Shown one piece after another: positions 7,107-41,712 of a stretch of 57,408 bases of DNA (its first letter is position 1; the number at the start of each line of letters is the position of its first letter). The DNA comes from Deltaproteobacteria bacterium (GTDB taxonomy: Bacteria > SAR324 > NAC60-12), in NCBI GenBank assembly GCA_038150265.1, contig JAYOTF010000022.1, positions 1 to 57,408 on the forward strand. Direction: 5' to 3'. Under the pieces are notes generated by a model. That model was not told the DNA's origin. It worked only from the letters and a program-made list of their open reading frames with translations, and did not search any database. The position numbers and the translations under genes were made by a program.

Positions 7107-7550
7107 ATGACCCTCTGGAAGCCTTTATTACTTGGAACGGTGGCCCTGAGTCTGGCCGGGTGCCTGGTGGTGCCTCAAGCCGAGCCCGAAGCACAGGACT
7201 GCGCATTGACGACCCGAAGCTGGTCGCTGACGGTGGTGAATGCCGACGTTGATGCGCAGGTGACCCTGAATGAAATGCAGCGCCTGGCCGCAACCGACTG
7301 TGACAAGCCGGAGTGCCTGATTCTGGTGGCTCCCGCATTGGCCATTTCAGCGGGATCGGCGATTGTGTCCGGGTCGGTGATGGTGGTGGGGAATTCCCTG
7401 CACTGGCTGGAGCGTCAGGGACGTTGTGACGACAGCACCACCCGCCAGGGCCTCGCTGTGATGCGTGGATCCCTGGAATCGGTGGGGGGCTGGGTGCTGG
7501 AAACCGGAGGCGATGTGATGAGCTGGTTCCAGGATCAGGCCGGAATTTAG
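7107..7550 (+). CDS. hypothetical Cys-containing lipoprotein
   Basis: MTLWKPLLLGTVALSLAGC lipobox; start reassigned to ATG 7107. Confidence 0.7.
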   Translation: MTLWKPLLLGTVALSLAGCLVVPQAEPEAQDCALTTRSWSLTVVNADVDAQVTLNEMQRLAATDCDKPECLILVAPALAISAGSAIVSGSVMVVGNSLHWLERQGRCDDSTTRQGLAVMRGSLESVGGWVLETGGDVMSWFQDQAGI

Positions 7551-7555
7551 GCGCC

Positions 7556-19018: not shown

Positions 19019-20284
19019 ATGTTTCGCGATATTCGACGCAGCGATTGGGCGCTGGTGGCGCTGGTGCTCCTGTTTGGCCTGGTTTTTTCCGGGGTGGCCT
19101 TTGACGTGGTCCTCCGGGTTGGGGAAATACGGGGAGGCCGGTCGGTGGACACGATGAGCAATGCCGGGTTTGTCTTCGGATCCGGGCTGCTGCTGACGTT
19201 CATCCTGAGCGCCTACCTCCTGCTCAACGCCCGGCAGAACCAACTGCTGCGTGTCCGGGAGCGGTCGCTGCATCAGGCCAACGGGCTGCTCGAAGACATC
19301 ATGCTCCACACCCCTCATGGGTTGGCTGTCGCTTCAGAGCGCGGACAGATTCAGCGAGCCAACCCCGCGTTTTCCCAAATCTTTCCCCAGGCGGCTCCCA
19401 CCACGGTTTCGCTGTTTCAGCTCCTTCAGCTTTCCGAGGCGCAGGTTCAGGAGCTGACCCAGGCGGCCACGCCTCATCCCCTGAACGCGACCCTCCGGCT
19501 GCCCTCTCAAGGCGATCGTGGGGATCAGACCCTGGAGTACTCCCTGCAGCGCTTGCCGCTGGGAGACGACGAAGATGGGCTGATCGTGGCCCACGTGTTT
19601 GACGTGACCGCCCGCAAGCTTCTGGAAGCACGTGTGCATCAGGCAGACCGGCTGGACGAAATGGGGCGGCTGGTGACAGAAATTGCTCACAAGCTCAACA
19701 CCCCCCTTGGGGCCATCACCAACAACGTGGAGCTGCTGGAGATGCGCATTGCTCGAGGAGACACCTCCGGACTCCAGAAACAGGCCCAGCGCATTCTGGC
19801 GGCTGCTGAAGAAGGCGCGGCGTACGTCCGGAAGCTCAAGGAGTTGCCTCACCTGGAAGAGGAACAGGCTCCGGCAGAACAAACGGTTCTGGTGGTATCG
19901 GTTCTTGAAGACGTGCTGGAGCAGATCCATGGGTTCTTGCTCGGCAAGCAGGTGCTGGTTCAACGCAACTACAACCTCAACGATGAGCGCCTGGTCCGCT
20001 GCCACGATGGGATCCTCCGGAAGACCCTGATGGCCCTGCTGGTGCGTGCGGTGCTGAAGGTCGAAGCACTTCCGGAGCGCGTGATGACCCTTGAGCTTCC
20101 GGCGGTGCCGAACCAGGTGAAGATCGAGCTGCACGCCCCCAGCGGAGGAGCGGAACCGTCGGCGACCCCGGACCTGGAGCTGCTGGCCAATCAGGAAGCG
20201 ATCCGGCAACTTGGCGGAGAGCTGACGGAGCATCATGAGGCCTCCGGCACCACACTTTCCCTTTACCTGCCCCTCTCCCCCTAA
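19019..20284 (+). CDS. membrane PAS-domain histidine-kinase-like protein with degenerate ATPase domain
   Basis: Two TM helices, PAS (ANPAF...DVTARK), H-box IAHKLNTPL; N, G1 and G2 boxes not recognisable. Confidence 0.75.
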   Translation: MFRDIRRSDWALVALVLLFGLVFSGVAFDVVLRVGEIRGGRSVDTMSNAGFVFGSGLLLTFILSAYLLLNARQNQLLRVRERSLHQANGLLEDIMLHTPHGLAVASERGQIQRANPAFSQIFPQAAPTTVSLFQLLQLSEAQVQELTQAATPHPLNATLRLPSQGDRGDQTLEYSLQRLPLGDDEDGLIVAHVFDVTARKLLEARVHQADRLDEMGRLVTEIAHKLNTPLGAITNNVELLEMRIARGDTSGLQKQAQRILAAAEEGAAYVRKLKELPHLEEEQAPAEQTVLVVSVLEDVLEQIHGFLLGKQVLVQRNYNLNDERLVRCHDGILRKTLMALLVRAVLKVEALPERVMTLELPAVPNQVKIELHAPSGGAEPSATPDLELLANQEAIRQLGGELTEHHEASGTTLSLYLPLSP

Positions 20285-20396
20285 AGGCAACGCTCCCGGT
20301 TTTTTGTAACACGTCGTGCGTTTTTCCGGAGGCGTCCATGCTTTTTGCAGCGCTCTTTTTCATTCCGGTTTCGGGTTTTGCCGTGTCCGGTTTCGG

Positions 20397-20425
20397 TTTA
20401 CACGCCTAGACCCGTTCGCTATAAT
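20397..20425 (+). promoter_or_regulatory. sigma-70 promoter of the yccA operon
   Basis: TTTACA (20397-20402), 17 bp, TATAAT (20420-20425), then TAAGGAG RBS before ATG 20472. Confidence 0.8.
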
Positions 20426-20471
20426 TCTCTCATCGTTTTCGCAAAGCAACCTTTAGCTTTTAAGGAGCAAC

Positions 20472-21161
20472 ATGCGTTTTGGAAATCCTCAATCCCTGGC
20501 TTACGGAGCGGTTCCGGCCTCATCGGTCTCCGTTCAGGAGCGTCTGGTCTTCCTCAAGAAGGTCTATGGCCTGCTCGGCGCCTCATTGCTGACAGCCACT
20601 GTTGGTGCCTACCTGGCCAGCGGTCCGCTGTTTGAGGTGATGGTGGGGCTGCACATGCCGCTCTTCTTGCTGGAAATCGGCCTGATCTTCTTTGCGTCCT
20701 ATGCCGCCCGGAAGCCTGGCCTGAACATGATTGCCCTCTTCAGCTTCACCTTTGTGTCCGGACTGACGCTGGGGCCCATCCTGGGGCTCTACATCATGGG
20801 CGGGAAGTCCACGGTCATTGCAGAGGCCTTTGCGCTCACCACCGTGGTGTTCTTTGGTCTGAGCGCCTACGTCGTCTTCTCGCGCAAGGACTTCAGCTTC
20901 ATGGGGGGCTTCCTGATGACGGGCCTGATCATCCTGGTCGTGGGCAGCCTCATCAACATGTTTGTCGGCAGCTCCATGGGCGCCTTCCTCATTTCCGGAG
21001 TGTCGGTGTTCCTCTTCAGCGGGTTCATCCTCTATGACACCTCGAACATCCTCCGGAACTACAGCACGGAAGATTACGTCAGTGCGACGTTGGCGCTGTA
21101 CCTCGACATCCTCAACCTCTTCATCGCGTTGCTCAACATCCTTGGCATGAGCCGCGACTAA
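20472..21161 (+). CDS. Bax inhibitor-1/YccA family membrane protein
   Basis: About 7 TM helices; FLKKVY, KDFSF.GGFL, FILYDTS, LYLDILNLF. Confidence 0.93.
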   Translation: MRFGNPQSLAYGAVPASSVSVQERLVFLKKVYGLLGASLLTATVGAYLASGPLFEVMVGLHMPLFLLEIGLIFFASYAARKPGLNMIALFSFTFVSGLTLGPILGLYIMGGKSTVIAEAFALTTVVFFGLSAYVVFSRKDFSFMGGFLMTGLIILVVGSLINMFVGSSMGAFLISGVSVFLFSGFILYDTSNILRNYSTEDYVSATLALYLDILNLFIALLNILGMSRD

Positions 21162-21170
21162 CCCCAGCCA

Positions 21171-23741
21171 ATGCGGCGTTTCGCCTGGGGCCTCCTCTTC
21201 AGCCTCCTGGGGCTTCCGCTGGTCGGTGTACTGGCGCTGGCCCTGGGGCTTTCCCTGACCTACGAAGACGCGCTGCTCGACTTCGAGCAGGCCGTGGAAG
21301 CCATCTCGACCAACACCATCTTGCTGGATACGGAAGGGAAGCCCTTCCATACCCTGCACAGTGGGGAGCGGCGGCAGGTGGTGGAACGGGGAGAAGCAGG
21401 CCGCTGGATGCAGATCAGCGTCCTGGCAGCGGAAGACACACGCTTCTTTCATCACCGCGGGGTGGACCCGGTCCGGATCCTTTCGGCCCTCTGGGTGAAC
21501 CTGCGGCACGGCGAGGTGAAGCAGGGCGCCAGCACCATCACGCAGCAGCTCGTCAAGGTCCTCCTGCTCAGTCCGGAACGGACGATCACCCGGAAGATCC
21601 GGGAGGCGCTCATTTCCATTTCGCTGGAGTGGAAATACGAGAAGACCCGCATCCTGGAAGCCTACCTCAACACCATCTACCTGGGTCATGGCAACTATGG
21701 CGTGGAGCAGGCGGCGCAGAGCTACTTTCACAAGCATGCCGCTGAACTGACGCTTGGGGAAGCCAGCCTGCTGGCCGGGATCATCCGGCGCCCCGAATTT
21801 TACCTCAAGGTCCCCAACAGCCTCCCTGACAAAAGCGAATTCTTTCCTCAGGCCGCTCTGCTGGAAGCCCTCAACCGCCGTGAGTTGGTGCTCCGGGAAA
21901 TGGCGCGGCAGCGTTGGATCACTGCTGAGCAGTGGCGTGACGTACGGGAGGAAAAGCTTCAGGTGTACCTGCCCAAGCGCTTCAGTGGCAGCGGTGCCTA
22001 CTTCATCCAGGAAGTCGTCAAGCGCCTCAAGAACGACCACAACCTGGCCCAGGTCTACGGCGGCGGCTACCGCGTTTATACCACGTACAACCCGGTTCTG
22101 CAGGAGCTGGCAGAGGCGGCCACGCACTCCATTTATGAAGGCGACAGCCCCCATTCGGCGCAGGTCGCTCTGGTCTCCATGGAGCCAAAGACCGGATTCG
22201 TCCGGGCCCTGATCGGGGGGCGGGACTTTGGCGAGTCCGAATTCAACCGGGCCGTGCAGGCCCTCCGGCAGCCCGGGTCTTCGTTTAAGCCGACGCTCTA
22301 TGCCACGGCACTCGAGAAGAGCTTTGCCCCCAACAATGTCTTCAAGGATGAGCCCCTGGTCTATGAGTGGGTGGACAACCTGGGCCTGACGAGCTTCTAC
22401 TCTCCGGGGAATGCCGACGGAAAGTTTGGCAAGGAGCGCACCTGGCTCGGACTCAATGGGGTGGAGTACAGCACCGATCACATGACCCTCGCCAAGGCTC
22501 TGGAGCGCTCGGTGAACACGGTGGCGGTGCAGGTGCTTGACCAACTCGGCATTGGCCCCCTTGCCCGTCAGGCGGAAAAGGTGGGCCTGAAGATCGATGA
22601 AAAGATGGGGCTTTGCATTGCGCTTGGGTGTTCCGGAACCACGTTGCTGGACCTGGTGTCATCGTACACGCCGTTTGCCAACGGAGGCATCGCGCACCAG
22701 CCGGTGTTCATCACCCGCATTGAAGACTTCACCGGGAAGGTTGTCTATGAGTATGAGCCCGATCCCGGGGTTCAGGCCTACTCCCCGTGGACCGCTCACC
22801 AGATGAACGAGATGCTCCGGCGAGTGGTCCTGAAGGGGACCGGCCGGAATGCCCAGTGGGGCAACAAGGACATCCCGATTGCCGGAAAAACCGGCACCAA
22901 TACCGATGGTCGAGACGCGTGGTTCATTGGCTACACTCCGGAGCTGGTCACCGGCGTCTGGATTGGCAAGGACGACAACACCGCCATGCCTTGGGAACAG
23001 GGCGGGCGCACTCCGGCACGCATCTGGCGCCGCTACAGCAAACCGGCCTTGCAGTTTGTGCCGGCTCAGGAGTTTCCGGAGCCTCCCCCGCATGCGCAGC
23101 TGCCGACCTGCTCCGTCAGTGGCAAGCTGGCCACCAGCAACTGTCCTGATGTGGAATACTACTCCTATCCGCTGGATGACCTTCCCACCGAATACTGCAC
23201 CGAGCATCCGGGCTTTCCGCTCAAGCACCTTGTTTCCATGGAGGAAACTCCAGTGGCCAACCTCCCGGACGCTCTGGTTCCGGAAGAGACCACCGTGGCT
23301 CAGCCGGAGGCGTTGCAGGAAGCCGGACGCTTTCCTGCTCCTTCTGCCCTGCCGCAGCAGGGACAGCCGGTTCCGGAAGTGGCGCTTGAGCCGAGTCCTC
23401 CGGACCCTCTGAGTCGTGAGGAGCCGGGAATGCGCCTGCCGGCGGAGCCTGCTCCGGTTCCCGAATTCCTCGACGAGGCGCCAGAGGCGACCCAGGCCTT
23501 CACGGAGCCGACGCCCCGGTTCCGAGACGTCCCGACCACCGAGCCCCGGTCATCAGGCGGGGCCGATCGGGCTGACGCGACGGACTGGCGGGTGCCAACG
23601 GATCCGGATGTTCCCATTTTTGAGCTGGAATCTGCCTCTGGAAGTCGGCGAAACTTGTCAGAAGGAGGACGTTTCCTGGATCTGCCCGAAGTCTTTACCA
23701 CCCCATACTCTTCTAACCGAGGAGCCCTTCCTTCTCGCTGA
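21171..23741 (+). CDS. class A penicillin-binding protein (PBP1A family)
   Basis: Glycosyltransferase motifs EDTRFFHHRG, GASTITQQL, RKIRE, YLNTIY; transpeptidase SSFK, SVN, KTG; Pro/Glu-rich tail. Confidence 0.95.
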   Translation: MRRFAWGLLFSLLGLPLVGVLALALGLSLTYEDALLDFEQAVEAISTNTILLDTEGKPFHTLHSGERRQVVERGEAGRWMQISVLAAEDTRFFHHRGVDPVRILSALWVNLRHGEVKQGASTITQQLVKVLLLSPERTITRKIREALISISLEWKYEKTRILEAYLNTIYLGHGNYGVEQAAQSYFHKHAAELTLGEASLLAGIIRRPEFYLKVPNSLPDKSEFFPQAALLEALNRRELVLREMARQRWITAEQWRDVREEKLQVYLPKRFSGSGAYFIQEVVKRLKNDHNLAQVYGGGYRVYTTYNPVLQELAEAATHSIYEGDSPHSAQVALVSMEPKTGFVRALIGGRDFGESEFNRAVQALRQPGSSFKPTLYATALEKSFAPNNVFKDEPLVYEWVDNLGLTSFYSPGNADGKFGKERTWLGLNGVEYSTDHMTLAKALERSVNTVAVQVLDQLGIGPLARQAEKVGLKIDEKMGLCIALGCSGTTLLDLVSSYTPFANGGIAHQPVFITRIEDFTGKVVYEYEPDPGVQAYSPWTAHQMNEMLRRVVLKGTGRNAQWGNKDIPIAGKTGTNTDGRDAWFIGYTPELVTGVWIGKDDNTAMPWEQGGRTPARIWRRYSKPALQFVPAQEFPEPPPHAQLPTCSVSGKLATSNCPDVEYYSYPLDDLPTEYCTEHPGFPLKHLVSMEETPVANLPDALVPEETTVAQPEALQEAGRFPAPSALPQQGQPVPEVALEPSPPDPLSREEPGMRLPAEPAPVPEFLDEAPEATQAFTEPTPRFRDVPTTEPRSSGGADRADATDWRVPTDPDVPIFELESASGSRRNLSEGGRFLDLPEVFTTPYSSNRGALPSR

Positions 23742-23750
23742 GATCCCCGC

Positions 23751-25589
23751 ATGCGTGTTTTGTTGTTGGTACTGCTGAGCCTCAGTCTGTTCAGCTGTTC
23801 CGTTCCCCGTCCCGAGGCTCCGGCGCCTCAGGCCGATCGTGGCATCCGTCGCACGGCTTCCGAGTCGGGAGAGCGCGTGGCACTGGTCCTGGGCAATGCC
23901 CGTTACACGACGAGTCCGCTGAAGAATCCGGTCCGCGACGCCCAGGCGATGGCCTCCTTGCTGGAGGACGCCCAGTTTGAGGTGATGCTGCTTGAAGACG
24001 CGTCCTACGCCCAGATGGAGGAAGCCCTGAACGCCTTCGGGGAGAAGCTCAGCCGTGCCCGGGTGGCGCTGTTTTACTATGCGGGCCACGGCGTGCAGTC
24101 GCAGGGTCGCAATTACCTGATGCCCGTCGATGCGGCCATCCGGAAGCCTCACGAGCTGCGGTACCAGACGATGGAGCTGGGACGCATTCTGGACACGATG
24201 GAAAGTGCCGGAAGCGCGACCAATCTGGTGATTCTGGATGCCTGCCGCAACAACCCGTTTGAATCGGCATGGCGTTCGGAGCAACGAGGGCTGGCGCCGG
24301 TGCGAGCCCCCGGAGGGACCTTTGTTGCGTTTGCCACCGCCCCCGGAGAAGTCGCAGCAGACGGGACCGGGCAGCATGGACTCTACACTGAGGCCCTGCT
24401 CCGGAACCTCCGGACCCCAGGTGTGCCCGTGGAGCTGGCCTTCAAGCGCGTCCGCCAGGACGTACTGCTGGCGAGCAACCAGCAGCAGGTCCCATGGGAT
24501 CAGTCGTCTCTGACGGCAGACTTCCGCTTCTTTCCTGCCGCTGAGGGCAGCGAAGCCGAGGCCACGCCCGTGCCCGTGGTGGTGTGCGAAGAGGCGTGCC
24601 AGCAGCAGCGGTTGGCCTCCATGCGTCAGGAATTTGCGGCACTCCGCGAGCAGGAACTGACCCGTCCGGATCCTGCCAAGCTGGTGCAACGCTGGCAGGC
24701 GTTTCTGCAGAACCATCAGGGCCGGTCTGCTTCGGTGACAGAAGAGAACACGATGCGCGCCAAAGCCCGGAAGCAACTCGCTTTCTGGAAGCAGGAACAG
24801 CAGGCGTTGCAGTCCAATGCAGACCAGAAGCAGCGTCAGTGGGCCCAAGGCACCTGGACGGAGCCTGCCACGCAGATGGAGTTCGTGGCCGTTGAAGGAG
24901 ACCCGTTTTTTCGCAAAGGAAATCTGTTGGTCGAGGACCCGCAGTGGGAAGAAGTCGCCGTCCCGCGCTTTTGGATGTCGCGCTACGAAGTGACCCTTGC
25001 CCAGTGGGAGGCGCTGATGACGCAGCCAACGGAAGCTCCACCTGCTGACTCCGTCAAGGGGTGGGTCACACAGACCCTCCGCAAGGGGTGGGAGAGCGCC
25101 AAGCAGGTGGCTCAGCAGTACCTTCCCGAAAAGCAGATCCCGGTTGTGGGCAAGACGTCTTCTGAGGTGGCAGACTTCCTCTCGCGCCTCAATGCCCTCC
25201 ATCCGGAGGGACCGGAGATCCGGTTACCCACCGCCGCAGAATGGGAGTACGCCTGCCGAGAAGGCGGTCGGCGGACTCGTTTTGGAACAGGAAAGATGAC
25301 CCTCAGTTTGTATGACGCCAATTTTCAACCGGAAGCCGACCGCCCCGACTTTGTGCTGGGGCCAGGTCGTGACACCACCAAACTGGCACCAGTGGGTTCG
25401 TATGAGCCCAACGCGCTGGGACTGTACGACCTCAGTGGCAATGCCGCGGAGTGGGTGGATGGCCTGGAACAGCTCCGGGGGGGCAGCTTTCAGGATGACA
25501 GCACCGCTCTGCAGTGTGCCACGTCTCAGCGAGCCCGTTTGTGGGGACCTGACCCGACCGCGGGTTTGCGGCTGGTGAGGGGGTACTGA
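23751..25589 (+). CDS. lipoprotein with caspase-family (peptidase C14) domain and C-terminal FGE-sulfatase/SUMF1-like domain
   Basis: LFSC lipobox; ALVLGN, LKNPVRDA, FYYAGHG (catalytic His), ILDACR (catalytic Cys); RLPTAAEWEYACR, PNALGLYDLSGNAAEW, RGGSF, GLRLVR. Confidence 0.92.
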   Translation: MRVLLLVLLSLSLFSCSVPRPEAPAPQADRGIRRTASESGERVALVLGNARYTTSPLKNPVRDAQAMASLLEDAQFEVMLLEDASYAQMEEALNAFGEKLSRARVALFYYAGHGVQSQGRNYLMPVDAAIRKPHELRYQTMELGRILDTMESAGSATNLVILDACRNNPFESAWRSEQRGLAPVRAPGGTFVAFATAPGEVAADGTGQHGLYTEALLRNLRTPGVPVELAFKRVRQDVLLASNQQQVPWDQSSLTADFRFFPAAEGSEAEATPVPVVVCEEACQQQRLASMRQEFAALREQELTRPDPAKLVQRWQAFLQNHQGRSASVTEENTMRAKARKQLAFWKQEQQALQSNADQKQRQWAQGTWTEPATQMEFVAVEGDPFFRKGNLLVEDPQWEEVAVPRFWMSRYEVTLAQWEALMTQPTEAPPADSVKGWVTQTLRKGWESAKQVAQQYLPEKQIPVVGKTSSEVADFLSRLNALHPEGPEIRLPTAAEWEYACREGGRRTRFGTGKMTLSLYDANFQPEADRPDFVLGPGRDTTKLAPVGSYEPNALGLYDLSGNAAEWVDGLEQLRGGSFQDDSTALQCATSQRARLWGPDPTAGLRLVRGY

Positions 25590-25590
25590 C

Positions 25591-26376
25591 ATGAGTGAAC
25601 TGCTTGATCCAGCCTTGCAGCCAGAAGCCTGGCTGGAGGCGCACTACCCAGAACTGGAAAAGGTGGTGCAGCATCTGTGTGACCGCAAGCGGGTCTGGGG
25701 AGACGAGGCCGACGAATTTCACAGCCTCGCGCGCCTGCACTTTGTGGAACGCGATTATGCCGTCATCCGGGAACTGGGGCAGGTGCAGTCGGTGCAGTCG
25801 TACCTGTACGCTGTGCTCTCCCGCCTGCTCGTCGATTACATTCGGCAGCGAAAGGGGCGGTTTCGTCCGTCTCGTAAAGCCGAAGGCCTCGGAGAGACGG
25901 CGATGCTGCTGGAACGCCTGGTGGTGGAGCAACGCCTGACGCTGGAGGAAACCTTTCAGTCCCTGACCATTACGCACCAGCGCCCCCTCACGCGTCAGGA
26001 ATTTCAGGAGCTTTGCCGAAGCCTGGACCTCCAGCGCGGGCGTCCGGAGGTGCAGGGCCTGGAAGAGCCCGAGCTGCTTCCTGCCTCTGAAGCTTCCACC
26101 GAGGAACTCGCGTTTGTCTCACCGCGGGTGCTGCTGGAGCCGGCGTTGGCGGAGCTGGAGCACCTCAAGGAAGGGCTCAGCCCCGAAGACCAGTTGCTGC
26201 TGGAGTGGCGGTTCCGGGACCAGCTTTCCATCAGCGAAATTGCGCGGGTGCTGAAGCTGTCGCGCTACCATGCGGAAAATACCCTCCAGCGCCTCCTCCT
26301 GCGTTTGCGAGAACGCTTGCTGGAACAGGGACTTGATGAAGACCGCCTGCGACTGCTCTTGCGTTTGCTGGGATAA
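25591..26376 (+). CDS. ECF-like sigma-70 family sigma factor
   Basis: Region 2 (ADE...SYLYAVLSRLLVDYIRQ) and region 4 HTH (LSPEDQLLLEWRF...LSISEIARVL). Confidence 0.8.
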   Translation: MSELLDPALQPEAWLEAHYPELEKVVQHLCDRKRVWGDEADEFHSLARLHFVERDYAVIRELGQVQSVQSYLYAVLSRLLVDYIRQRKGRFRPSRKAEGLGETAMLLERLVVEQRLTLEETFQSLTITHQRPLTRQEFQELCRSLDLQRGRPEVQGLEEPELLPASEASTEELAFVSPRVLLEPALAELEHLKEGLSPEDQLLLEWRFRDQLSISEIARVLKLSRYHAENTLQRLLLRLRERLLEQGLDEDRLRLLLRLLG

Positions 26377-26473
26377 TCGGATCGTTTATTTTTGAAAACC
26401 TGTGGATCGTCCGTCCAGACAGGATGAATGCAACAACCCCAATGTTTTGGGCGGCTGACGGAGATTTTGAGTT

Positions 26474-27403
26474 ATGTTGAATGATTGCCCCTCAACCCAG
26501 ACCATGGCCAACTTTTCGGATGGCACCCTTCCGGACACCGAGCACCAGAAGGTGGTGGAGCACCTGGCCGCTTGCCGGGACTGCTCCGAGTGGATGGCGG
26601 TGCTGATGGAAACCAAGGAGGCGCTGCCGCACCTCTTCCAGGAAGAAGCCACCTCTCAGGCGGCTCCCGTTGTGAAGCTCCCTCCGGCCAACAAACGCCG
26701 CCCGGTCCAGAAACGTCCCTTCCAGTGGAAGCCTCTGCTGGTGGCCGCGTCCATTTCGGTGGTCGCCGCCATGAGCCTGATCACGACCCTGTCCAGTGGT
26801 CCCAAGCTCGAAGGCATGGGCGCGGCCGCTGTGGCGGAGCGACTCAAGACCCTGCCGGCTTCAGCAGATTCGGTTCCGCAGGAGACGGTGATGGGCTTTT
26901 CCTCAGCGACCACACCGGCCCAGTCGGCATTTGCCACCGGGCTGCTGATGACGCGCTCCACGCATTACCTCGTGACCAACGACCTGCCGTCGGCGGCGGC
27001 GACCTTTGAGGAACTGGAACAGCTCAACCTGAACCCGACGCTGAACCGCCAGCTGTACGTCTGGAAGACCTGGGCGAGGCAGACTCGAGATGCGTCTTAT
27101 GCGCTCCCTCCAGAAGTGGAACACTGGGAAGGACGCTTTGCCTCAGACGCGGAGCGTCCCTACCTGCACCTCGGTGAGTTGGCAGAAGGGAGCCGCATTG
27201 CCATTCTTCACCAGGACCAGAGCTTCTTCCGAGACCTCCCGCTCCGGACCCTGCGGTCCGAGTTGGAGTCGGCCCAGGCGCTGCCCGGCGTGTTCCGGAG
27301 CCTGGAAACGCTGGAGCTGCTGGCCCTTTCTCCAGACCCCACGGACCACCAGTGGCAAGAAGCTGATGAGGCGGTCCGCGACCTGATCCTGCTCTTCCAA
27401 TGA
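26474..27403 (+). CDS. zf-HC2 (ZAS) transmembrane anti-sigma factor
   Basis: CP...HLAACRDC zinc motif, one TM helix (WKPLLVAASISVVAAMSLI), extracytoplasmic C-terminal domain; follows the sigma gene. Confidence 0.8.
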   Translation: MLNDCPSTQTMANFSDGTLPDTEHQKVVEHLAACRDCSEWMAVLMETKEALPHLFQEEATSQAAPVVKLPPANKRRPVQKRPFQWKPLLVAASISVVAAMSLITTLSSGPKLEGMGAAAVAERLKTLPASADSVPQETVMGFSSATTPAQSAFATGLLMTRSTHYLVTNDLPSAAATFEELEQLNLNPTLNRQLYVWKTWARQTRDASYALPPEVEHWEGRFASDAERPYLHLGELAEGSRIAILHQDQSFFRDLPLRTLRSELESAQALPGVFRSLETLELLALSPDPTDHQWQEADEAVRDLILLFQ

Positions 27404-29148
27404 AATCCCTGGTCTTCTGGAGCCTCGTGACGCTCAAGCTGGTCCTGGTTGCCGCCTGGCTGCTGGTCTCGCTGGGCGTGGCGCTGGCCCAGTCTGACCC
27501 ACGGGCGCATGCCGCCTGGTGGGTGGAGCAGCATGGCGCTTTGGAAGAAGCATCGGCTCCAGAAGCTGCCCGGGTCCGGAAGGTCTTTGAGCAGGTCGTG
27601 CATGCTGCCGACAAACGCTCGGGACGCTGGCCCCAGCTGGTGCTGCTCCGCTCCCAACGAACCCCCCTGGCCCTCTCGCTTCCGGATGGCTCCGTCCTCC
27701 TCAATCACGCGGCCCTGACGTTTCTGTACCAGGTGGAAGACCCGGCGCTCGGCGACACCCGGGCCGCATTTGTGCTGGGACACGAGCTGGCGCACCTGGC
27801 ACAGGATGACTTCTGGCAGGCAGAAGCCTTTGCGGCGTCGCAGGCCAACCCGCAGTGGGAGCAGTCGGTCGAAGCTTGGCTGGCGGGCAAGCAGCAGGCC
27901 AACACGCCGATCCTCCGGGAGCTGCAGGCCGATGCTTACGGCTTGATCTATGCGGTGCAAGCCGGGTTTTCAGCCGATCCAATCCTGGACCAAGGGGAGC
28001 GCTTCTTTGCGGACTGGGCGGCTCAGTCACGTCTGCATCCGCACTCGGGCACCCACCCTCCGGATGCCACCCGAGCAGCGATCCTGCAGGCCTCGCTGCA
28101 TCAGGTCCGAGCGGTTCAGGACTGGTTCGATTTCGGAACCCTCCTGCTCCAGATTGGGCGATTGGACGATGCGCGCCTGCTGCTCGAAGAGTACCAGCGG
28201 CACTTTCCGGGCCGGGCTGTGCTCAACAACCTGGGGGTGGTGGCCTACGAGCAGGCAATGGCGCATCTGGCCGACTGCAATCCCGTGTTGCCCACCACGC
28301 TGATGACCACGCTGCTGGTGGATGTCGAAACCCGTGGAGCCGGGACCCGTCAGGGCGGACACCACTGCCTGCGTGAAGAGCCGGTGCAGCGAGGCTTCCA
28401 GGAGGCCGACCGTTACTTTCAGGAAGCCACCCAGCACGATCCGAACTACCTTCCGGCGTGGAGCAACCTTGCTTCGGTCCGCCTCTGGAGTGGCGATGCC
28501 TCGGGCGCCATGAGCGCTGCGGATCAGGCCCTCAAGCGGGAGGCCACTCTTCCGGAAGCCCTCAACCTGAAGGCGCTGGCCCTCTACCGCTTTGGGGCGC
28601 AGACGGGCATTGATACCGCGGATCGGGCGCTGAAGGTGCTGGAGATTCTGCAGCAGCGCTACCCCCACTACGCCCCGGCGGCCTACAACCGAGCGATGCT
28701 GCTCACGGAACGTCAGCGCACGGCTGCTGCTCAGGAAGCATGGCGGCAGGCCCTGGAACAGCCGCTTCCTGCAGCCTACGCGAGCCATGCCCGGGAACAG
28801 CTCGGGGAGCCCGCACCGGTCAGAGGACGGGTGCTTGCCCAAGTTCCGGCTCCAGTGGCACTGGGCTCTGCGACAGACGGATCGGGAACGGTGGCGCTGC
28901 GACTGCGTCAAGGCAGCTTCCGGGCCTCGGTATCGGTGCAGGCAGACCTCCGGATCCTGCGACTGGGACGCTCAGTGGAGCTGGTTCAGCAGCAGGCGCC
29001 TGCTGTACGTCCTGATGCCCTTCCCCCGCCCAAGCTCCGGCAGCGCCTGCCCACTGGCGAATTGTGGCTCTACGATGACTTCGCTCTGGAAGTCCGGGAG
29101 GGAGTCAGTCGACGGGCCTGGTGGTTTGCCCCGCACGATCCTTCCTGA
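27400..29148 (+). CDS. exported M48-family zinc metalloprotease with TPR repeats
   Basis: Signal peptide; AFVLGHELAH, ELQADAYG, THP; TPR motifs (VLNNLG, AWSNLA, AAYNRA); ATGA overlap with the anti-sigma gene. Confidence 0.85.
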   Translation: MKSLVFWSLVTLKLVLVAAWLLVSLGVALAQSDPRAHAAWWVEQHGALEEASAPEAARVRKVFEQVVHAADKRSGRWPQLVLLRSQRTPLALSLPDGSVLLNHAALTFLYQVEDPALGDTRAAFVLGHELAHLAQDDFWQAEAFAASQANPQWEQSVEAWLAGKQQANTPILRELQADAYGLIYAVQAGFSADPILDQGERFFADWAAQSRLHPHSGTHPPDATRAAILQASLHQVRAVQDWFDFGTLLLQIGRLDDARLLLEEYQRHFPGRAVLNNLGVVAYEQAMAHLADCNPVLPTTLMTTLLVDVETRGAGTRQGGHHCLREEPVQRGFQEADRYFQEATQHDPNYLPAWSNLASVRLWSGDASGAMSAADQALKREATLPEALNLKALALYRFGAQTGIDTADRALKVLEILQQRYPHYAPAAYNRAMLLTERQRTAAAQEAWRQALEQPLPAAYASHAREQLGEPAPVRGRVLAQVPAPVALGSATDGSGTVALRLRQGSFRASVSVQADLRILRLGRSVELVQQQAPAVRPDALPPPKLRQRLPTGELWLYDDFALEVREGVSRRAWWFAPHDPS

Positions 29149-29286
29149 ACGCCTCCCGATTCCGCTTCGGCTGCCGCAATCTTTTGATTTTTTCCCCGGC
29201 TTCTTGCATCGTTGTCACTCGGATTCCGCAGGAGCGTCCTGCGGCCCTCGCTGAGGGAAGCCTCTGACTGCTTTCAACGACTCACC

Positions 29287-29913
29287 ATGCCTGACATGCC
29301 CCGTTTGCTCATCACCTGTCTGGACCTCGAAGGGGTCCTGATTCCGGAAATCTGGCTGGGCCTGGCCGACCGTACCGGCCTCGACGACCTCCGCCTGACC
29401 ACCCGCGACATTGCCGATTATGATGAACTCATGCAGCATCGGCTGCGGGTGTGCGAGCAGCACGGGCTGGGCCTTCCGGATATCCAGAAGGTGGTGGAAA
29501 CAATGGCTCCCATGCCAGGGGCCGTGGAGTTTCTACGCTGGCTCCAGACCAAGGGGGAGGTTGTGATTCTCTCAGACACCTTCCGGGAGTTTGTGGTGCC
29601 GCTGCTTCCGCAACTCGAGCACCCCACGCTTTTTTGCCACTCCCTCGAAATTGAACCCTCGGGCAAGATTGCCAACTACTGCCTGCGCTTGCAGGACCAG
29701 AAGCGCAAGGCTGTGGAAGCCTTCCGGAGCCTGAACTTTCAGGTTGTGTCGGCTGGCGACTCCTACAACGACATCTCCATGCTCAAGGCCTCGCACTGGG
29801 GCATCCTCTACCGTCCGGCTGAGAGAGTGGTGGCCGAATACCCCGAGTTCCCGGTCACAACCGATTACGAGGCCCTGAAGGCCGAACTCTCCAAGCTGCC
29901 CGGCTATGCGTAA
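29287..29913 (+). CDS. thrH: phosphoserine phosphatase/homoserine phosphotransferase
   Basis: CLDLEGVLIPEIW, TTRDI.DYDELM, ILSDTF, AGDSYND. Start could be 29296. Confidence 0.93.
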   Translation: MPDMPRLLITCLDLEGVLIPEIWLGLADRTGLDDLRLTTRDIADYDELMQHRLRVCEQHGLGLPDIQKVVETMAPMPGAVEFLRWLQTKGEVVILSDTFREFVVPLLPQLEHPTLFCHSLEIEPSGKIANYCLRLQDQKRKAVEAFRSLNFQVVSAGDSYNDISMLKASHWGILYRPAERVVAEYPEFPVTTDYEALKAELSKLPGYA

Positions 29914-30712
29914 GCCAACCCGAACGCCCCCGCGTTCCTCAGGGAAGCCCCCTGCCCGCGGACGCCGTCCTGCTGCCCCTCGTGGTCGAGAAGAAGGCCT
30001 GTACGGCATCCAGCCCATCACCGAAGCCTTGCGTCACCGGAGACGTCCGTTGGAGGCGCTGTTGCTGAAGGACGGCTCCGGGAACCCGAGGCTGGAGGAG
30101 TTGCGAGCCCTGGCGGAGGAGTTGAAGCTTCCGGTGAAGCGTGTGGAGGGGCGTGAGTTGGACCAGCGGTGTCCGGGCGCGGTGCATCAGGGGGCGGTGT
30201 TGCTGTGTGGCGAGTTGGACACACAAGAGGCGCTCGACCTTCCGGATCCACGGCAGCAGCCGTATCCGGTCCTCATGGCACTGGATCAGGTGGAGGATCC
30301 GCACAACCTTGGCGCCATCCTGCGAACCTGTGGCTTCTTTGGCGTGGAGGCGTTGGTGATGCCGCGGGACCATGCGCCTCCGCTGGGAGGCGTTGTGGCA
30401 AAAAGCTCCACCGGCGTTTCGGAGTGGCTGCCCATCCTCAAGGTGCCGAACCTGCACCGCTTCCTCAAGCAGCAGCAGCAAGCCGGCTACTGGGTGGTGG
30501 GACTGGACATGGAAGGCGCGGAGCCCCTGACCGGCCTCAAGCGAGACCGGGCGCTGATTCTGGTGCTGGGCAACGAAGGGCAGGGCCTGCGTCCGCTCAC
30601 ACGGCAGACGTGTGACTGGGCGGTGCAGATTTCCGGAAGTGGCGCCGTGGAGTCCCTGAATGTCAGCAACGCCGCTGCCATCACGCTTCATCAGGTGTTT
30701 CGGGAAGGCTAA
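29906..30712 (+). CDS. rlmB: 23S rRNA (Gm2251) 2'-O-methyltransferase
   Basis: HQG, LDQVEDPHNLGAILRT, GNEGQG, ESLNVS SpoU motifs. Confidence 0.9.
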   Translation: MRKPTRTPPRSSGKPPARGRRPAAPRGREEGLYGIQPITEALRHRRRPLEALLLKDGSGNPRLEELRALAEELKLPVKRVEGRELDQRCPGAVHQGAVLLCGELDTQEALDLPDPRQQPYPVLMALDQVEDPHNLGAILRTCGFFGVEALVMPRDHAPPLGGVVAKSSTGVSEWLPILKVPNLHRFLKQQQQAGYWVVGLDMEGAEPLTGLKRDRALILVLGNEGQGLRPLTRQTCDWAVQISGSGAVESLNVSNAAAITLHQVFREG

Positions 30713-32180
30713 CGGCCTGCACCTGCGTTTCCACCGTTCCGTCCGGAAGGTGGATCTCCAACCGTTCCCCCACCGTGACCTCCTGAGCGCTTCGCAGCGC
30801 CTGCCGGTTGGGCTTCCGGACCATGGCGTATCCCCGCTGCACCTGCGCAAGCGGACTGAGGTGCTGGAGCGCTTCGGCATGAGCGGCCAGCTGCTGCTTG
30901 TGCTGCATCAGGTTCTGGTGCAGGGCCCGTTGCAAACGCTCCTGCAGCTGCTGCAGGGAGGGGGCAAGGTCCCGGAGGCGTTGTTGAGGAGCCAGCACCT
31001 TCAGCGTGTGGTCGGCCTGCTGCACCCGAAACTGCCGTCGTTCCTGCTGCCGGCTCCATGTGGCTTCCAGCTTCTCATCCAAATCATCCACCCGTTGCTG
31101 ATAAAACGCGATGGCTCGCTCTGGAGACGCCAGCCGGAAGGCCAGTTGCTCCACCCGTTCCCGGGCCCGTTCGGCATGACGCTCAACTGTGCGGATGAGC
31201 TGGTTCTGAAGCTCATTGACGGTGTACAGCAGGTCGGCGCGTCGAGGCACCGCCTGCTCCATTGCGGCAGAAGGCGTGGGGGCCCGGAGGTCGGCAACAA
31301 AGTCCGCGATCGTGTAGTCCGTTTCATGTCCCACTGCGGAAATGATCGGAAGCGGCATGTGGAAGATCGCCCGGGCCAGCTCCTCATTGTTGAAGGCCCA
31401 GAGGTCTTCCAGAGAGCCGCCGCCTCGCCCAATGATGACCAGGTCCACGCCGAGTCGCTGATGCCGCTCCGCAAAGTACCGAAGCCCGGCCAGCAGTTCC
31501 GGAACCGCCCGCTCTCCCTGGACCGAAGCCGGATAGAGCAGGACCGGGATGCCGGGAAAGCGCCGGTTCAGGACGGTCCACATGTCGTGAATGACGGCTC
31601 CGGACTGCGAGGTGACAATGCCGATGCGCTTGGGCAGAAACGGCAGGGCCCGCTTGTGTTGGTCGTCAAAGAGCCCCTCGTGCTGAAGGCGGTTCCGGAG
31701 CTGCTCAAACGCGAGCTGCAAGGCGCCCACGCCTTTGGGTTCAAACGCTGAGGCCTGAAGCTGATACTCGCCTCGGGGACCATAGACGCTGACGCTGCCC
31801 CGGACGACGACTTCCAGTCCCTGCTCCGGGCGAAAGGGCAGGCGGGCGGCGGCATTCCGGAACATCACCCCCTTGATCTGGGCCTGGGTATCCTTGAGCG
31901 TGAAGTAGAGGTGCCCGGACGCAGCCCGCGTCAGGCTGGAAATCTCGCCCTCCACCAGCACGCCCCGAAACTTTCCTTCCAGCACAAAACGAATCTGCTG
32001 GGTCAGCTCGGCAACGGTCAGCGGCTGCGGAGCCGTTGGGGGTTCTGGAACGCGTTCCGGAGCGGCCGAGCCTGAAGGCAAGGAGGGTTCCGACTCGCCG
32101 GGGGCTGGTTCGCGGGGGGCCGGTTCTTCAGGTTCCACAATGAACGGAATGCTGGTCTGGATGGTTTTCTTAGCGGGCAT
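30681..32180 (-). CDS. xseA: exodeoxyribonuclease VII large subunit
   Basis: VEGEIS, SGHLYFTLKD, IGIVTS, RGGGSLEDLWAFN, VGHETD, PTPSAA. Start placed at ATG 32180. Confidence 0.95.
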   Translation of the reverse strand: MPAKKTIQTSIPFIVEPEEPAPREPAPGESEPSLPSGSAAPERVPEPPTAPQPLTVAELTQQIRFVLEGKFRGVLVEGEISSLTRAASGHLYFTLKDTQAQIKGVMFRNAAARLPFRPEQGLEVVVRGSVSVYGPRGEYQLQASAFEPKGVGALQLAFEQLRNRLQHEGLFDDQHKRALPFLPKRIGIVTSQSGAVIHDMWTVLNRRFPGIPVLLYPASVQGERAVPELLAGLRYFAERHQRLGVDLVIIGRGGGSLEDLWAFNNEELARAIFHMPLPIISAVGHETDYTIADFVADLRAPTPSAAMEQAVPRRADLLYTVNELQNQLIRTVERHAERARERVEQLAFRLASPERAIAFYQQRVDDLDEKLEATWSRQQERRQFRVQQADHTLKVLAPQQRLRDLAPSLQQLQERLQRALHQNLMQHKQQLAAHAEALQHLSPLAQVQRGYAMVRKPNRQALRSAQEVTVGERLEIHLPDGTVETQVQAVSLPETPDEA

Positions 32181-33900
32181 TCCGGATTTCGGCAAGGCGT
32201 TGTTCGTAGTAGTTGCTTCCGGAGGGGGCATCTGGAGCAGGCCCCTGATCCGCCAGCCGCAGGGCCTCCCGGGCGGCATGCAGGGCCTCTTCATACTGAC
32301 CTTGCTGCCGGTAGCCTTCAGCCAGGGTGTCCCAGATGAAGGCTGCAGGCTGGTGCGCCAGTGCCGCCTGTGCAAGCTGAATCGACTCCGCAAGGGCTTC
32401 CGGATCATGAGCGCGGTTTTCTGCCAGCACCCACGCGAGGTTGTTGAGGGTCCGGGGATCGTCAGGAGCGAGCTCCAGGGCCTGTCGGTAGTAGCGTTCT
32501 GCCTCCTCCAGGTGGCCCTGTGAGTAGGCCAGGTCTCCCAGCTGGGTGAGGAATCCGGAATCGCGGGGCGTCAGGGTTTCGTTGTGCTGCACGTACCAGG
32601 TGAGCCACTGGCGGATGCCGGCGTTGGAGGTGGCGTAGCTGTTGATGCCGATGGTGCAGAGCAGGGTCAGGACGCATCCGAACTGAATCCAGCGGACGCG
32701 TCGGTGGTGTGCGGAAACCCGCTCCGGCTCCTGCGCGCCCACCTTGAGGAAGTTGAGGCGGTCCAGGATGCCGTAGTGGTGCCAGTTGGGCTTTTCGGGG
32801 TCAATGCCATTGAGCCACGCCACCTTCAGCAGGGCCCGTCCCATCGGTTCCAGGCCAACGCGTTCCAGGGCATTGCAGTCGGCCTGCCGCTCAAAGTTGC
32901 GGCTGAGGAAGCCAAGTCCGAAACGCAGAAACAGCAGCAGGGCGAGGATGGTGAAGCTTCCGTAAAAGACGGCGGGCAGCTCCCATTCCCCGAACCACTC
33001 CGTGACCGTCAGGGCGGCTGAGAGCAGCATCATGCCTTCGAGGAAGGCGAAGAAGGCGAAGGCGTAGAAGAGCAGGTGCTGCTTGCGGAGGTGTCCGGCT
33101 TCATGAGCAATGACGGCCCGGAGCTCCTCCGGCGTGAGGGCATTCAGCAACTGGCGGCTGATGAGCAGGTACCGGAGTCCTGGAAGCAGCCCAACCACGC
33201 CGGCCGTCGCACTGGAGAGCAGCTCCTCGGGCCAGAGCAACACCTTCCGGACCGAGACGCCGTTGTGCTGCAGCTCGTCTTCAATGAGGAACCGGCCTTC
33301 ACTTTCCGGAAGCCCCTCCAGGTTCCAGGCCTTCATCATCACCGGCGGAGCCAGAGCGATCATGAGAACCAGGCTGCTCAGGGTGCTCAGCAGCAGCTCG
33401 GCATTGAGCGGCAGGTCTTCCGTCCACAGCGGGAGGACGCTTAGCCACACCGAATGAACGGCCCCGAGGATCAGCAGGGGCAACTGCAGGCGCAGGTTCC
33501 GGACCAGCCGAGTTCGGTAGCCCTCCCGGTGGGGAGAGAGCGGGGTGATGGCAAGGGAGTCGAGCAGCCAAAAATGCACAATGAGCAATCCGAAGGCCCA
33601 CCCGTCGGGACTCCAGCCTTCCTGAAACACCGCCTGCAGGCGCAGGTCGAGCGCTTCGGTGTAGATGGCCCCGAGCCACGCGGTGAGGATGAGCAGGCGC
33701 TTGAAGTGCTGCTGCCGCTGCAGGGAGAGGTGCCGGCTTTGAAACGAGGCTTGCCCGATCCAAAACGCGAGCCCCAGCAGCCCCAACAGGGTCAGCGGCC
33801 AGGGGAGGTTCAGCCACGCCTCCGGACGAGCCGCTGTGTCTTCCGTGAGCAACGATAGACTGAGGGACGCCAGAATGAGGGGAAGAAAGGGCAAGAACAT
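32170..33900 (-). CDS. membrane M48 (HtpX/Ste24-like) metalloprotease with C-terminal TPR
   Basis: Multiple TM helices; AVIAHEAGH, FERQAD; TPR (LNNLAW, DTLAE). Confidence 0.88.
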   Translation of the reverse strand: MFLPFLPLILASLSLSLLTEDTAARPEAWLNLPWPLTLLGLLGLAFWIGQASFQSRHLSLQRQQHFKRLLILTAWLGAIYTEALDLRLQAVFQEGWSPDGWAFGLLIVHFWLLDSLAITPLSPHREGYRTRLVRNLRLQLPLLILGAVHSVWLSVLPLWTEDLPLNAELLLSTLSSLVLMIALAPPVMMKAWNLEGLPESEGRFLIEDELQHNGVSVRKVLLWPEELLSSATAGVVGLLPGLRYLLISRQLLNALTPEELRAVIAHEAGHLRKQHLLFYAFAFFAFLEGMMLLSAALTVTEWFGEWELPAVFYGSFTILALLLFLRFGLGFLSRNFERQADCNALERVGLEPMGRALLKVAWLNGIDPEKPNWHHYGILDRLNFLKVGAQEPERVSAHHRRVRWIQFGCVLTLLCTIGINSYATSNAGIRQWLTWYVQHNETLTPRDSGFLTQLGDLAYSQGHLEEAERYYRQALELAPDDPRTLNNLAWVLAENRAHDPEALAESIQLAQAALAHQPAAFIWDTLAEGYRQQGQYEEALHAAREALRLADQGPAPDAPSGSNYYEQRLAEIRNAR

Positions 33901-41534: not shown

Positions 41535-41712
41535 GATTTCCCCCGTGCAAAATAAATCCGTCTCCCGCCCCCAATGGCCTGCGTCCGCCCTGTTTCAGAT
41601 CATGCCCAGCAGGATTTCGTGCATTGAAGGCTCGCACGATCTCCGATAAAGTAAAAGACTCATGCATCAATAATGCGCGAGCCTTCCGGTTTGCCTGATC
41701 CGAGAGAAAGCG

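Follow-up and report, generated by a model that had tools for sequence, protein, structure and literature searches.

The subject of this analysis is a four-gene cassette in a 57,408-nucleotide stretch of SAR324 DNA (hereafter the window; GenBank assembly GCA_038150265.1, contig JAYOTF010000022.1, positions 1 to 57,408 of the forward strand), encoding a caspase-type (C14) lipoprotein, a divergent sigma factor, a membrane anti-sigma factor, and an exported M48 metalloprotease with tetratricopeptide repeats (M48-TPR). The sigma factor, the anti-sigma factor, and M48-TPR, often together with a caspase, very likely constitute a real functional cassette, one that many uncultured bacteria have conserved. 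We regard them as a shared functional unit because their neighborhood is conserved, because partners occur as fusion proteins, and because export signals are found on all partners. The cassette probably lets extracytoplasmic events switch on secreted protease genes. Our best overall explanation, held at a little under even confidence, is a conserved envelope cassette that would act as a periplasmic, protease-gated sigma switch with a protease regulon. The parts in the window are listed below (ECF, extracytoplasmic function; FGE, formylglycine-generating enzyme).

23751 to 25589, forward strand: caspase (C14) lipoprotein with a C-terminal FGE-sulfatase-like domain, 612 aa (Pfam, translation).
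25591 to 26376, forward strand: divergent sigma-70-family factor with ECF-like regions 2 and 4, 261 aa (family models, profile).
26393 to 26415, forward strand: two-part promoter-like motif TGAAAAC-N-GTCCGTC in the 97-bp sigma/anti-sigma spacer (cross-genome comparison).
26474 to 27403, forward strand: single-pass zinc-type (HxxxCxxC) anti-sigma factor, 309 aa (zf-HC2, AlphaFold).
27400 to 29148, forward strand: M48 zinc metalloprotease, exported, with TPR and C-terminal beta domains, 582 aa (Pfam, Foldseek).

An earlier note, made from the letters of the window, had described four co-oriented genes separated by a 1 bp gap, a 97 bp gap, and a 4-bp overlap, and the list of open reading frames (ORFs) agrees exactly. 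The motifs it had named, namely the lipobox, AGHG/DACR, HxxxCxxC, the transmembrane helix, HELAH, and the TPRs, were all recovered in the translations or by Pfam. In what follows, G000 is the genome that carries the window (3.39 Mb), and other G and L numbers denote the other genomes and loci compared.

Among 88 SAR324 genomes, 27 matched the anti-sigma factor at 1e-3, giving 20 loci in 18 genomes whose flanks were read by tblastn and Pfam. Eighteen of these loci are full-length or nearly so; the anti-sigma gene is cut by a contig end in G069 and broken in G023. The M48-TPR gene adjoins the anti-sigma gene in 18 of the 20 (G019 has none and G023 a fragment), the sigma gene does so in 16 (none in G001 and G019, contig end in G069, fragment in G023), and a C14 gene lies within the available flanking DNA in 13. 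The constant core consists of M48-TPR with the sigma and anti-sigma factors; the caspase, present in 13 of 20 loci, is a modular partner that is frequent without being constant. The association with caspase and M48 genes is far beyond chance. The earlier note had asked for a neighborhood search for C14, CHAT, and M48-TPR genes, and these counts, with a CHAT gene in L088, bear the linkage out. Its further claim, that all four genes form one envelope system, is upheld by the conserved linkage, the fusions, and the export signals, and has to be relaxed for the caspase.

The same arrangement is found in different genera and families and at differing GC contents. In L044, from another family of the phylum, caspase-FGE, sigma, anti-sigma, and M48 genes stand in the order of the window, and a caspase gene precedes sigma in L010, L044 (caspase-FGE), and L056 (caspase-Lcl_C); on G079:C80 a WD40-caspase gene is divergent from sigma. 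A search with a 12-sequence alignment found two genome loci and 23 metagenome loci outside the phylum set; a 56-sequence alignment made for the related-locus search held no conserved stretch. Both non-phylum genome loci carry the triad in the same order, with the caspase-Lcl_C gene 5' of sigma in L056 and a DUF4384 gene in L055. Where metagenome contigs hold enough downstream DNA, M48-TPR directly follows the anti-sigma gene in 15 of 17, which represent fewer independent cases than 17 because several contigs are near-identical; L103 and L106 have sigma and anti-sigma genes without M48-TPR. When 301 genomes were sampled from the phylum to which G088 belongs, a full-length anti-sigma homologue was found in G088 only, the other matches covering just the N-terminal zf-HC2 domain, so the family is patchy.

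The cassette has decayed in one genus. What is left in L054 (G023:C78, about 7200-8700) is a sigma fragment, an anti-sigma gene disrupted by a TGA and a deletion, and, of M48-TPR, only the C-terminal end; L012 (G019:C4) keeps the anti-sigma gene without sigma or M48-TPR. Both G023 and G019 keep the lipoprotein, trypsin-like, and DUF4384 genes.

Fusion proteins join the partners physically. An M48-TPR-C14 fusion of about 852 aa occurs in five species of one genus, where a leucine-rich repeat (LRR) lipoprotein gene follows it; four cases were identified by Pfam and listed here, and L050 by tblastn and its ORF.

L046:9920-12481: M48-TPR-caspase fusion.
L047:9976-12534: M48-TPR-caspase fusion.
L049:7480-10059: M48-TPR-caspase fusion.
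L051:6050-8605: M48-TPR-caspase fusion.

In these four listed fusions the C-terminus is extended by a tail that has hydrophobic stretches and an aromatic-rich Q-W-x-W end, which we take to be reminiscent of an outer-membrane targeting signal. An M48-TPR-DUF4384 fusion is found in two genera (L043, L045), with genes for a caspase-Sel1 and a LamG protein nearby. In L088, an exported TPR-CHAT protein (1066 aa, CHAT 1e-73) and an HtrA-like protease are encoded directly after M48-TPR. A recurrent accessory set comprises two lipoproteins (210-250 aa and 500 aa), a trypsin-like protease, and DUF4384 proteins (L013, L016, L044, L048, L054). Every cassette partner examined has a signal peptide or lipobox.

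One account is that the genes are neighbors by chance or operon drift, with no common function. G000 encodes 10 C14 and 3 M48 proteins in its 3.39 Mb, some C14 genes in tandem, so that a caspase near a given gene is not very rare, and synteny of the flanks does not reach beyond the genus. The cassette nevertheless recurs across families and outside the phylum, its parts are fused, its loci share a motif, and the single C14 gene in the 5.8 Mb of G004 is that of its cassette. This account, already contradicted by the linkage, fusion, and motif data, is extremely improbable. The C14 genes of G000 lie also on contigs C12 (33341-35410), C26, C81, C17, and C18, with others on C22, C4, and C67.

The sigma protein falls just below curated cut-offs (TIGR02937, 42.0 versus 42.9; Sigma70_r4, 21.4 versus 24.1), and homologues pass the cut-off of the region 2 or the region 4 model. 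A family profile of 15 members matches region 2 of SigW at 3.2e-6 and WhiG/FliA across region 4. ECF sigmas have a short linker between regions 2 and 4 and a total length of about 170-220 aa. Aligning 15 homologues shows about 95 inserted residues between the two regions; the protein is 261 aa long, relatives reach 455 aa, and this family departs from the short-linker form. It resembles ECF systems in its co-encoded anti-sigma factor and in the two-part motif at the junction (18 of 32 loci), which the sigma factor would read. The gene is single-copy in G000.

The anti-sigma factor matches zf-HC2 at 22.9 bits (Pfam cut-off 22.2) and carries the zinc motif H30-x3-C34-x2-C37; HxxxCxxC is present in 149 of 154 family members. 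Its cytoplasmic domain (residues 1-55), membrane helix (about 87-107), and all-helical outer domain (about 148-308) are consistent with an AlphaFold model (confidence score pLDDT 84.5) that places a helix at 93-106 and models the outer domain confidently. The N-terminal part aligns with RsiW (Z 6.2, root-mean-square deviation 5.6 over 67 aa) and RslA (Z 5.4), and this helical domain with its HxxxCxxC motif is that of class I zinc-binding anti-sigma factors. The best sequence match of its profile to a solved structure is the N-terminal region of DdvA (8rlz_A), at E 0.0024. The outer domain of about 160 aa gave no CHAT or C14 match, which sets the protein apart from anti-sigma factors that carry TPR-CHAT themselves, as DdvA does. 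Foldseek found nothing at or below 1e-3 for the model in the PDB; for the outer domain, a wide VIA-align search gave only generic helical bundles (best Z 7.7), and the best ESM Atlas score, 0.76, was too low for a usable lead. As a word-indexed homologue search yielded 6 proteins only, an exhaustive profile search was used instead; it returned 10488 representative clusters at E<=1e-3, of which 683 reach E<=1e-10, and the 150 best are mostly full-length, about 300 aa. Homologues come from SAR324 and Pseudomonadota metagenome-assembled genomes and are named 'hypothetical protein' or 'zf-HC2 domain-containing protein' only. Separately, L088:15286-16074 encodes a shorter relative of the outer domain (262 aa, no zf-HC2 match), located after the TPR-CHAT and HtrA-like genes.

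M48-TPR matches Peptidase_M48 at 26.9 bits (cut-off 20.3) and several TPR families in Pfam, and its N-terminal hydrophobic leader, read by eye, ends in ALA. The active site comprises HELAH at 128-132 followed by E174-x2-A177-D178, and all 20 homologues compared keep H128, E129, H132, E174, A177, and D178 (HExxH...ExxAD). The AlphaFold model (pLDDT 82) consists of a protease domain, TPR helices, and a C-terminal beta domain (about 497-576). To our knowledge, BepA of E. coli is not encoded with an anti-sigma factor. In fold, it is among the closest known relatives: TPR proteins and BepA lead the Foldseek list, and among the matches listed BepA (PDB 6ait, 6sar) is the only solved protein that matches both the protease and the TPR parts. 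Both are exported and have an M48 domain, with HExxH and a distal Glu, followed by TPR repeats, which places M48-TPR in the BepA-like M48 family. The 6ait match reaches E 1.7e-6 over about 470 columns, but with a TM-score of only 0.20-0.29; M48-TPR differs in its extra C-terminal beta domain, and BepA-type NCBIfam models gave no significant match, so by those models it is not a BepA equivalog. A second M48-plus-TPR protein is encoded 3 kb 3' of the cassette (window 32170-33900, reverse strand, 576 aa), with its M48 domain mid-protein at residues 235-371. It was considered as a paralogue of M48-TPR and rejected, the best BLASTP E value being 0.11.

The earlier note had suggested multimer prediction for the protease and the anti-sigma factor. 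A predicted complex of M48-TPR (31-582) with anti-sigma residues 108-309 scored ipSAE 0.46 (runs 0.39, 0.46, 0.46) against 0.00 for the best control; the contacts agree between runs to 72% or more, and the partner pLDDT is 80 or higher. When the tool was calibrated, 116 of 157 solved complexes and 2 of 215 mismatched pairs came up to its mark, and scores of 0.60 or less include only 18 of the 157 solved complexes and both passing mismatches. The model thus lends weak support to a contact between M48-TPR and the anti-sigma outer domain.

The caspase has a Peptidase_C14 match of 4.7e-39 (residues 42-258, nt 23874-24524), the p20 domain with its His-Cys dyad that defines this family, and a lipobox-like LFSC at its N-terminus (Cys16, from the translation). 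The dyad, His113 in YAGHG and Cys165 in ILDACR, is kept in 12 of 12 cassette caspases. Formylglycine-generating enzymes have paired catalytic cysteines near the C-terminus. The FGE-sulfatase match of the window caspase (1.3e-25; residues 395-571, about nt 24933-25463) spans profile positions 25-191 of 255, and one Cys follows the GGSF stretch. Because this domain also matches the PorK/GldK and PvdO models of NCBIfam, its sequence suggests a non-enzymatic binding fold. The C14-FGE-sulfatase architecture was catalogued in 2012 (PMC3501461); this and the papers cited below are used from the portions available to us.

In an alternative reading, the site-1 cut would fall to the caspase, a role already suggested for the CHAT domain in DdvA, with M48-TPR protecting or holding the outer domain, after the model of RseB, or processing the caspase. 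The M48-TPR-caspase fusions recreate a TPR-caspase layout and an exported TPR-CHAT follows M48-TPR in L088, both in keeping with such a role. Precedents are DdvA (PMC11506125), Csx29/Csx30 (10.1101/2022.08.17.504292), and PCaspase/PCc-sigma (10.1101/2023.06.23.546230). Yet seven of the 20 phylum loci have no caspase in the available DNA and keep M48-TPR with an intact HExxH, and no conserved basic residue stands out in the juxtamembrane linker of the anti-sigma factor in alignments. We consider this division of labor quite unlikely.

Comparison of the 97-bp gap with its counterparts in G002 and G001 offers a candidate promoter. The blocks TTGAAAA and GTCCGTCC are conserved while the spacer has diverged; the G001 counterpart lacks the sigma gene and lies between unrelated flanks. 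The motif consists of GAAAA, 12-13 bases, and CCGTC, and the window copy ends 58 nt before the anti-sigma ATG. A regular expression, [AG]AAA[AC]-N10-15-CCGTC on the coding strand within 110 nt of the anti-sigma ORF start, hits 18 of 32 loci at the sigma/anti-sigma junction; per search window 0.009 matches would be expected, the background being 35 matches in 869 kb of the same DNA. Motif-bearing loci range from 62% GC to AT-rich contigs, and all three loci inspected only after the expression was written (L089, L090, L101) have it. Some anti-sigma ORFs were called across the motif; in these, a ribosome-binding site and an ATG come some 20 nt beyond CCGTCTAA, so the true start probably lies downstream. 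A first k-mer scan of the 300 nt upstream of 24 sigma genes had reached at most 6 loci, against 4-6 in shuffles; the motif was later found 3' of sigma, before the anti-sigma gene.

The motif also occurs away from the junction. In L045 it precedes the sigma gene, in L044 the lipoprotein/DUF4384 genes, and in L015 both. In G000, TGAAAAN{11,15}TCCGTC matches 6 times, the window copy included, against 2 for a reversed control. On contig 4 (C4:7118-7140) it lies 67 nt before an operon of caspase, PEGA-like protein, and caspase genes, and another copy precedes a gene for a 160-aa exported protein. On contig 67, near 8950, a variant, TGAAAT...TGTCCGTC, heads an operon for a lipoprotein (u232), a 500-aa lipoprotein (u500), a trypsin-like protease, DUF4384, and a caspase; in G013 and G023 these genes are physically linked to the cassette. 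The orthologous places in G002 carry the motif as well, including the u232-u500-trypsin-DUF4384-caspase operon on G002:C3, and G001 has four copies (L011 7157-7241 on C30; contigs C3, C59, C74) with none in the control. It is fairly likely that the motif is the promoter of the sigma factor and marks its regulon. Since it heads unlinked caspase, trypsin-like, and DUF4384 operons, the exported proteases are likely outputs of the sigma factor too. The earlier note had cast the proteases as inputs; they are possible inputs and likely outputs as well.

Such outputs raise the possibility that the proteases have no part in releasing the sigma factor. The outer domain would then sense the signal itself, or a housekeeping protease would cut it, and the proteases and DUF4384 lipoproteins would be a regulon for envelope quality control or remodeling; sigma-E of E. 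coli, for comparison, controls DegP and BepA. The motif before anti-sigma/M48-TPR and before the operons on G000:C4, G000:C67, and G002:C3, the BepA-like architecture of M48-TPR, and the envelope housekeeping neighbors in the window (YccA-like, PBP1A) all agree with this. The 4-bp overlap and the adjacency in 18 of 20 loci are, however, tighter than is usual for a mere regulon member, the complex prediction weakly supports direct contact of M48-TPR with the anti-sigma factor, the window caspase is co-transcribed with sigma and has no motif of its own, and the swappable binding domains on the caspases look sensor-like. We judge a purely downstream role of the proteases to be rather unlikely.

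We tentatively prefer protease-gated release of the sigma factor, to which we give somewhat less than an even chance, because of the translational coupling, the fusions, the shared compartment, the intact active sites, an RseP homologue, and the weak complex score. The order of steps, the nature of the signal, and the division of cutting between the proteases we infer as follows. The zinc-type anti-sigma factor would hold the divergent sigma factor at the inner membrane, its helical outer domain standing in the periplasm with the constant partner M48-TPR, whose gene would be co-transcribed and translationally coupled with its own. The caspase-FGE-like lipoprotein, co-transcribed with sigma, would supply a swappable ligand-binding head, in place of which relatives carry Sel1, LRR, PEGA, WD40, Lcl_C, or TPR-CHAT. 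Upon a periplasmic signal, the caspase, M48-TPR, or both would remove the outer domain in a site-1 cut, and the RseP-type protease of the genome would make the intramembrane cut that frees sigma. The genome does encode an RseP-type site-2 protease (M50; G000:C13:46391-47632). Freed sigma would transcribe from GAAAA-N12/13-CCGTC, with feedback on the anti-sigma factor and M48-TPR and a regulon of unlinked exported caspases, the trypsin-like protease, and DUF4384/lipoprotein genes. The earlier suggestion that one of the proteases clips the outer domain is plausible; catalytic residues are intact in 20 of 20 M48-TPR proteins and 12 of 12 caspases, and contact of M48-TPR with the outer domain has weak support at 0.46.

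Several points weigh against gated release and against the motif as its output. The motif before protease operons fits a purely downstream role of the proteases equally well, and the M48-TPR/anti-sigma score lies in the weak band only. The caspase is missing from seven of 20 phylum loci, G001 has anti-sigma and M48-TPR without sigma, and G019 has the anti-sigma gene alone. The regular expression was written after examples had been seen, and related genomes are not independent. No motif precedes the caspase-sigma pair of the window itself, and classic ECF promoters have a longer spacing than the 12-13 nt of GAAAA-CCGTC. Finally, no sigma factor of the cassette family was found in the assembly of G001 (96% complete) despite its motif copies; either the sigma gene is unassembled or another sigma factor reads the motif. 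A sigma candidate on C66 of G001 proved to be FliA beside an FlhG-like gene and does not belong to the cassette family.

The closest known system is DdvS/DdvA of Myxococcus xanthus (2024), in which a membrane anti-sigma factor has a periplasmic TPR-CHAT domain; a caspase-type site-1 cut followed by RseP was proposed, and DdvS controls an island with a cyclic-oligonucleotide-based anti-phage signaling system (CBASS) and CRISPR (PMC11506125). The two share an ECF-type sigma factor, a single-pass zinc-type anti-sigma factor, and a caspase-like module facing the periplasm. They differ in that TPR-CHAT is within the DdvA polypeptide whereas the cassette anti-sigma factor has an unrelated helical outer domain, and in that the cassette caspase is a separate C14 lipoprotein, not CHAT, with a constant M48 partner added. 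DdvS also controls its CBASS/CRISPR island, whereas PADLOC found no defense genes among 21 ORFs flanking the cassette. We view the cassette as a variant of the DdvA/DdvS type of protease-linked sigma/anti-sigma switch with split components and a constant M48-TPR. The statement that no characterized system has this architecture thus needs qualification: DdvA/DdvS is a precedent, and split parts with M48-TPR were not found in the literature available to us.

The type III-E system of Csx29 (TPR-CHAT), Csx30, Csx31, and CASP-sigma likewise ties a caspase-like protease to a sigma factor and its binding partner, and some Csx30 C-terminal domains are DUF4384, which is recurrent in cassettes; it differs in being cytoplasmic, RNA-guided, and CRISPR-linked, and in the portions available to us has no membrane anti-sigma factor or M48 (10.1101/2022.08.17.504292). 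PCaspase/PCc-sigma of type III-B is a cytoplasmic relative of the theme (10.1101/2023.06.23.546230). Independence from CRISPR, as the earlier note proposed, agrees with the absence of cas genes, including any Cas7-11 association, from the ORFs scanned with PADLOC at 1e-5 (21 flanking ORFs and the cassette), no whole-window CRISPR scan having been made. Two other computational links between ECF sigmas and caspase/CHAT proteins concern other sigma groups, partners, and taxa: ECF54 of Actinobacteria with CHAT-TPR and subtilase genes (PMC7826278), and EACC2-caspase with an ECF sigma and DUF1822 (PMC8195603). The portions of their texts available to us mention neither M48 nor the cassette anti-sigma factor, and the literature searched holds no description of a sigma/anti-sigma pair with an M48-TPR partner, though the PMC7826278 supplement may list more.

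A more specific version of gated release, which we consider unlikely though somewhat less so than a division of labor with the caspase as site-1 protease, would make the cassette a two-protease relay that serves as an extracytoplasmic pattern-recognition receptor. The caspase head would detect a foreign or damage-derived periplasmic molecule, the caspase would activate or be activated by anti-sigma-bound M48-TPR, the structurally unusual sigma factor would launch exported caspases and serine proteases from promoters of its own, and the fusions would be intermediates toward the TPR-CHAT of DdvA and type III-E.

The control and targets of bacterial caspase homologues are largely unknown, and DdvA is the only characterized periplasmic case, its signal and cleavage being unproven. 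The cassette splits sensor head, caspase, metalloprotease, anti-sigma factor, and sigma factor into individual genes, and offers natural fusion variants and a candidate promoter marking output genes. Because the parts are separate, fusions exist, and a candidate promoter is available, each step can be tested by point mutants and a reporter. If gated release is true, a metalloprotease-partnered branch is added to the known ways of freeing ECF-type sigmas.

A role of the cassette in a defense response, one of the settings offered by the earlier note, found no support: PADLOC at 1e-5 matched 0 of the 21 flanking ORFs, and its only match among the four cassette proteins was to a generic caspase model. 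Two further ORFs in the window, 39165-41555 (forward, 796 aa) and 30660-31751 (forward, 363 aa), gave no match to a Pfam family at 1e-3; the longer one, of 796 aa, has a third-position GC of 0.66, below its neighbors, and may not be a real gene. HAD hydrolase and SpoU methyltransferase genes lie 3' of the cassette, and on its 5' side are genes for a YccA/BI-1-like protein and a class A penicillin-binding protein (PBP1A), with gaps of 10 and 9 bp. The only sizeable upstream intergenic gap, before the YccA-like gene, holds a sigma-70-type promoter match at 20397-20425 (forward; TTTACA-17-TATAAT, 11 of 12 to consensus). It is the sole such match in 20200-29400, with 1 found against 1.1 expected, and is suggestive by position only. 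Since the gaps from the YccA-like gene onward are only 10, 9, and 1 bp, the caspase-sigma pair may, judging from sequence, be read through from this promoter of a housekeeping envelope operon.

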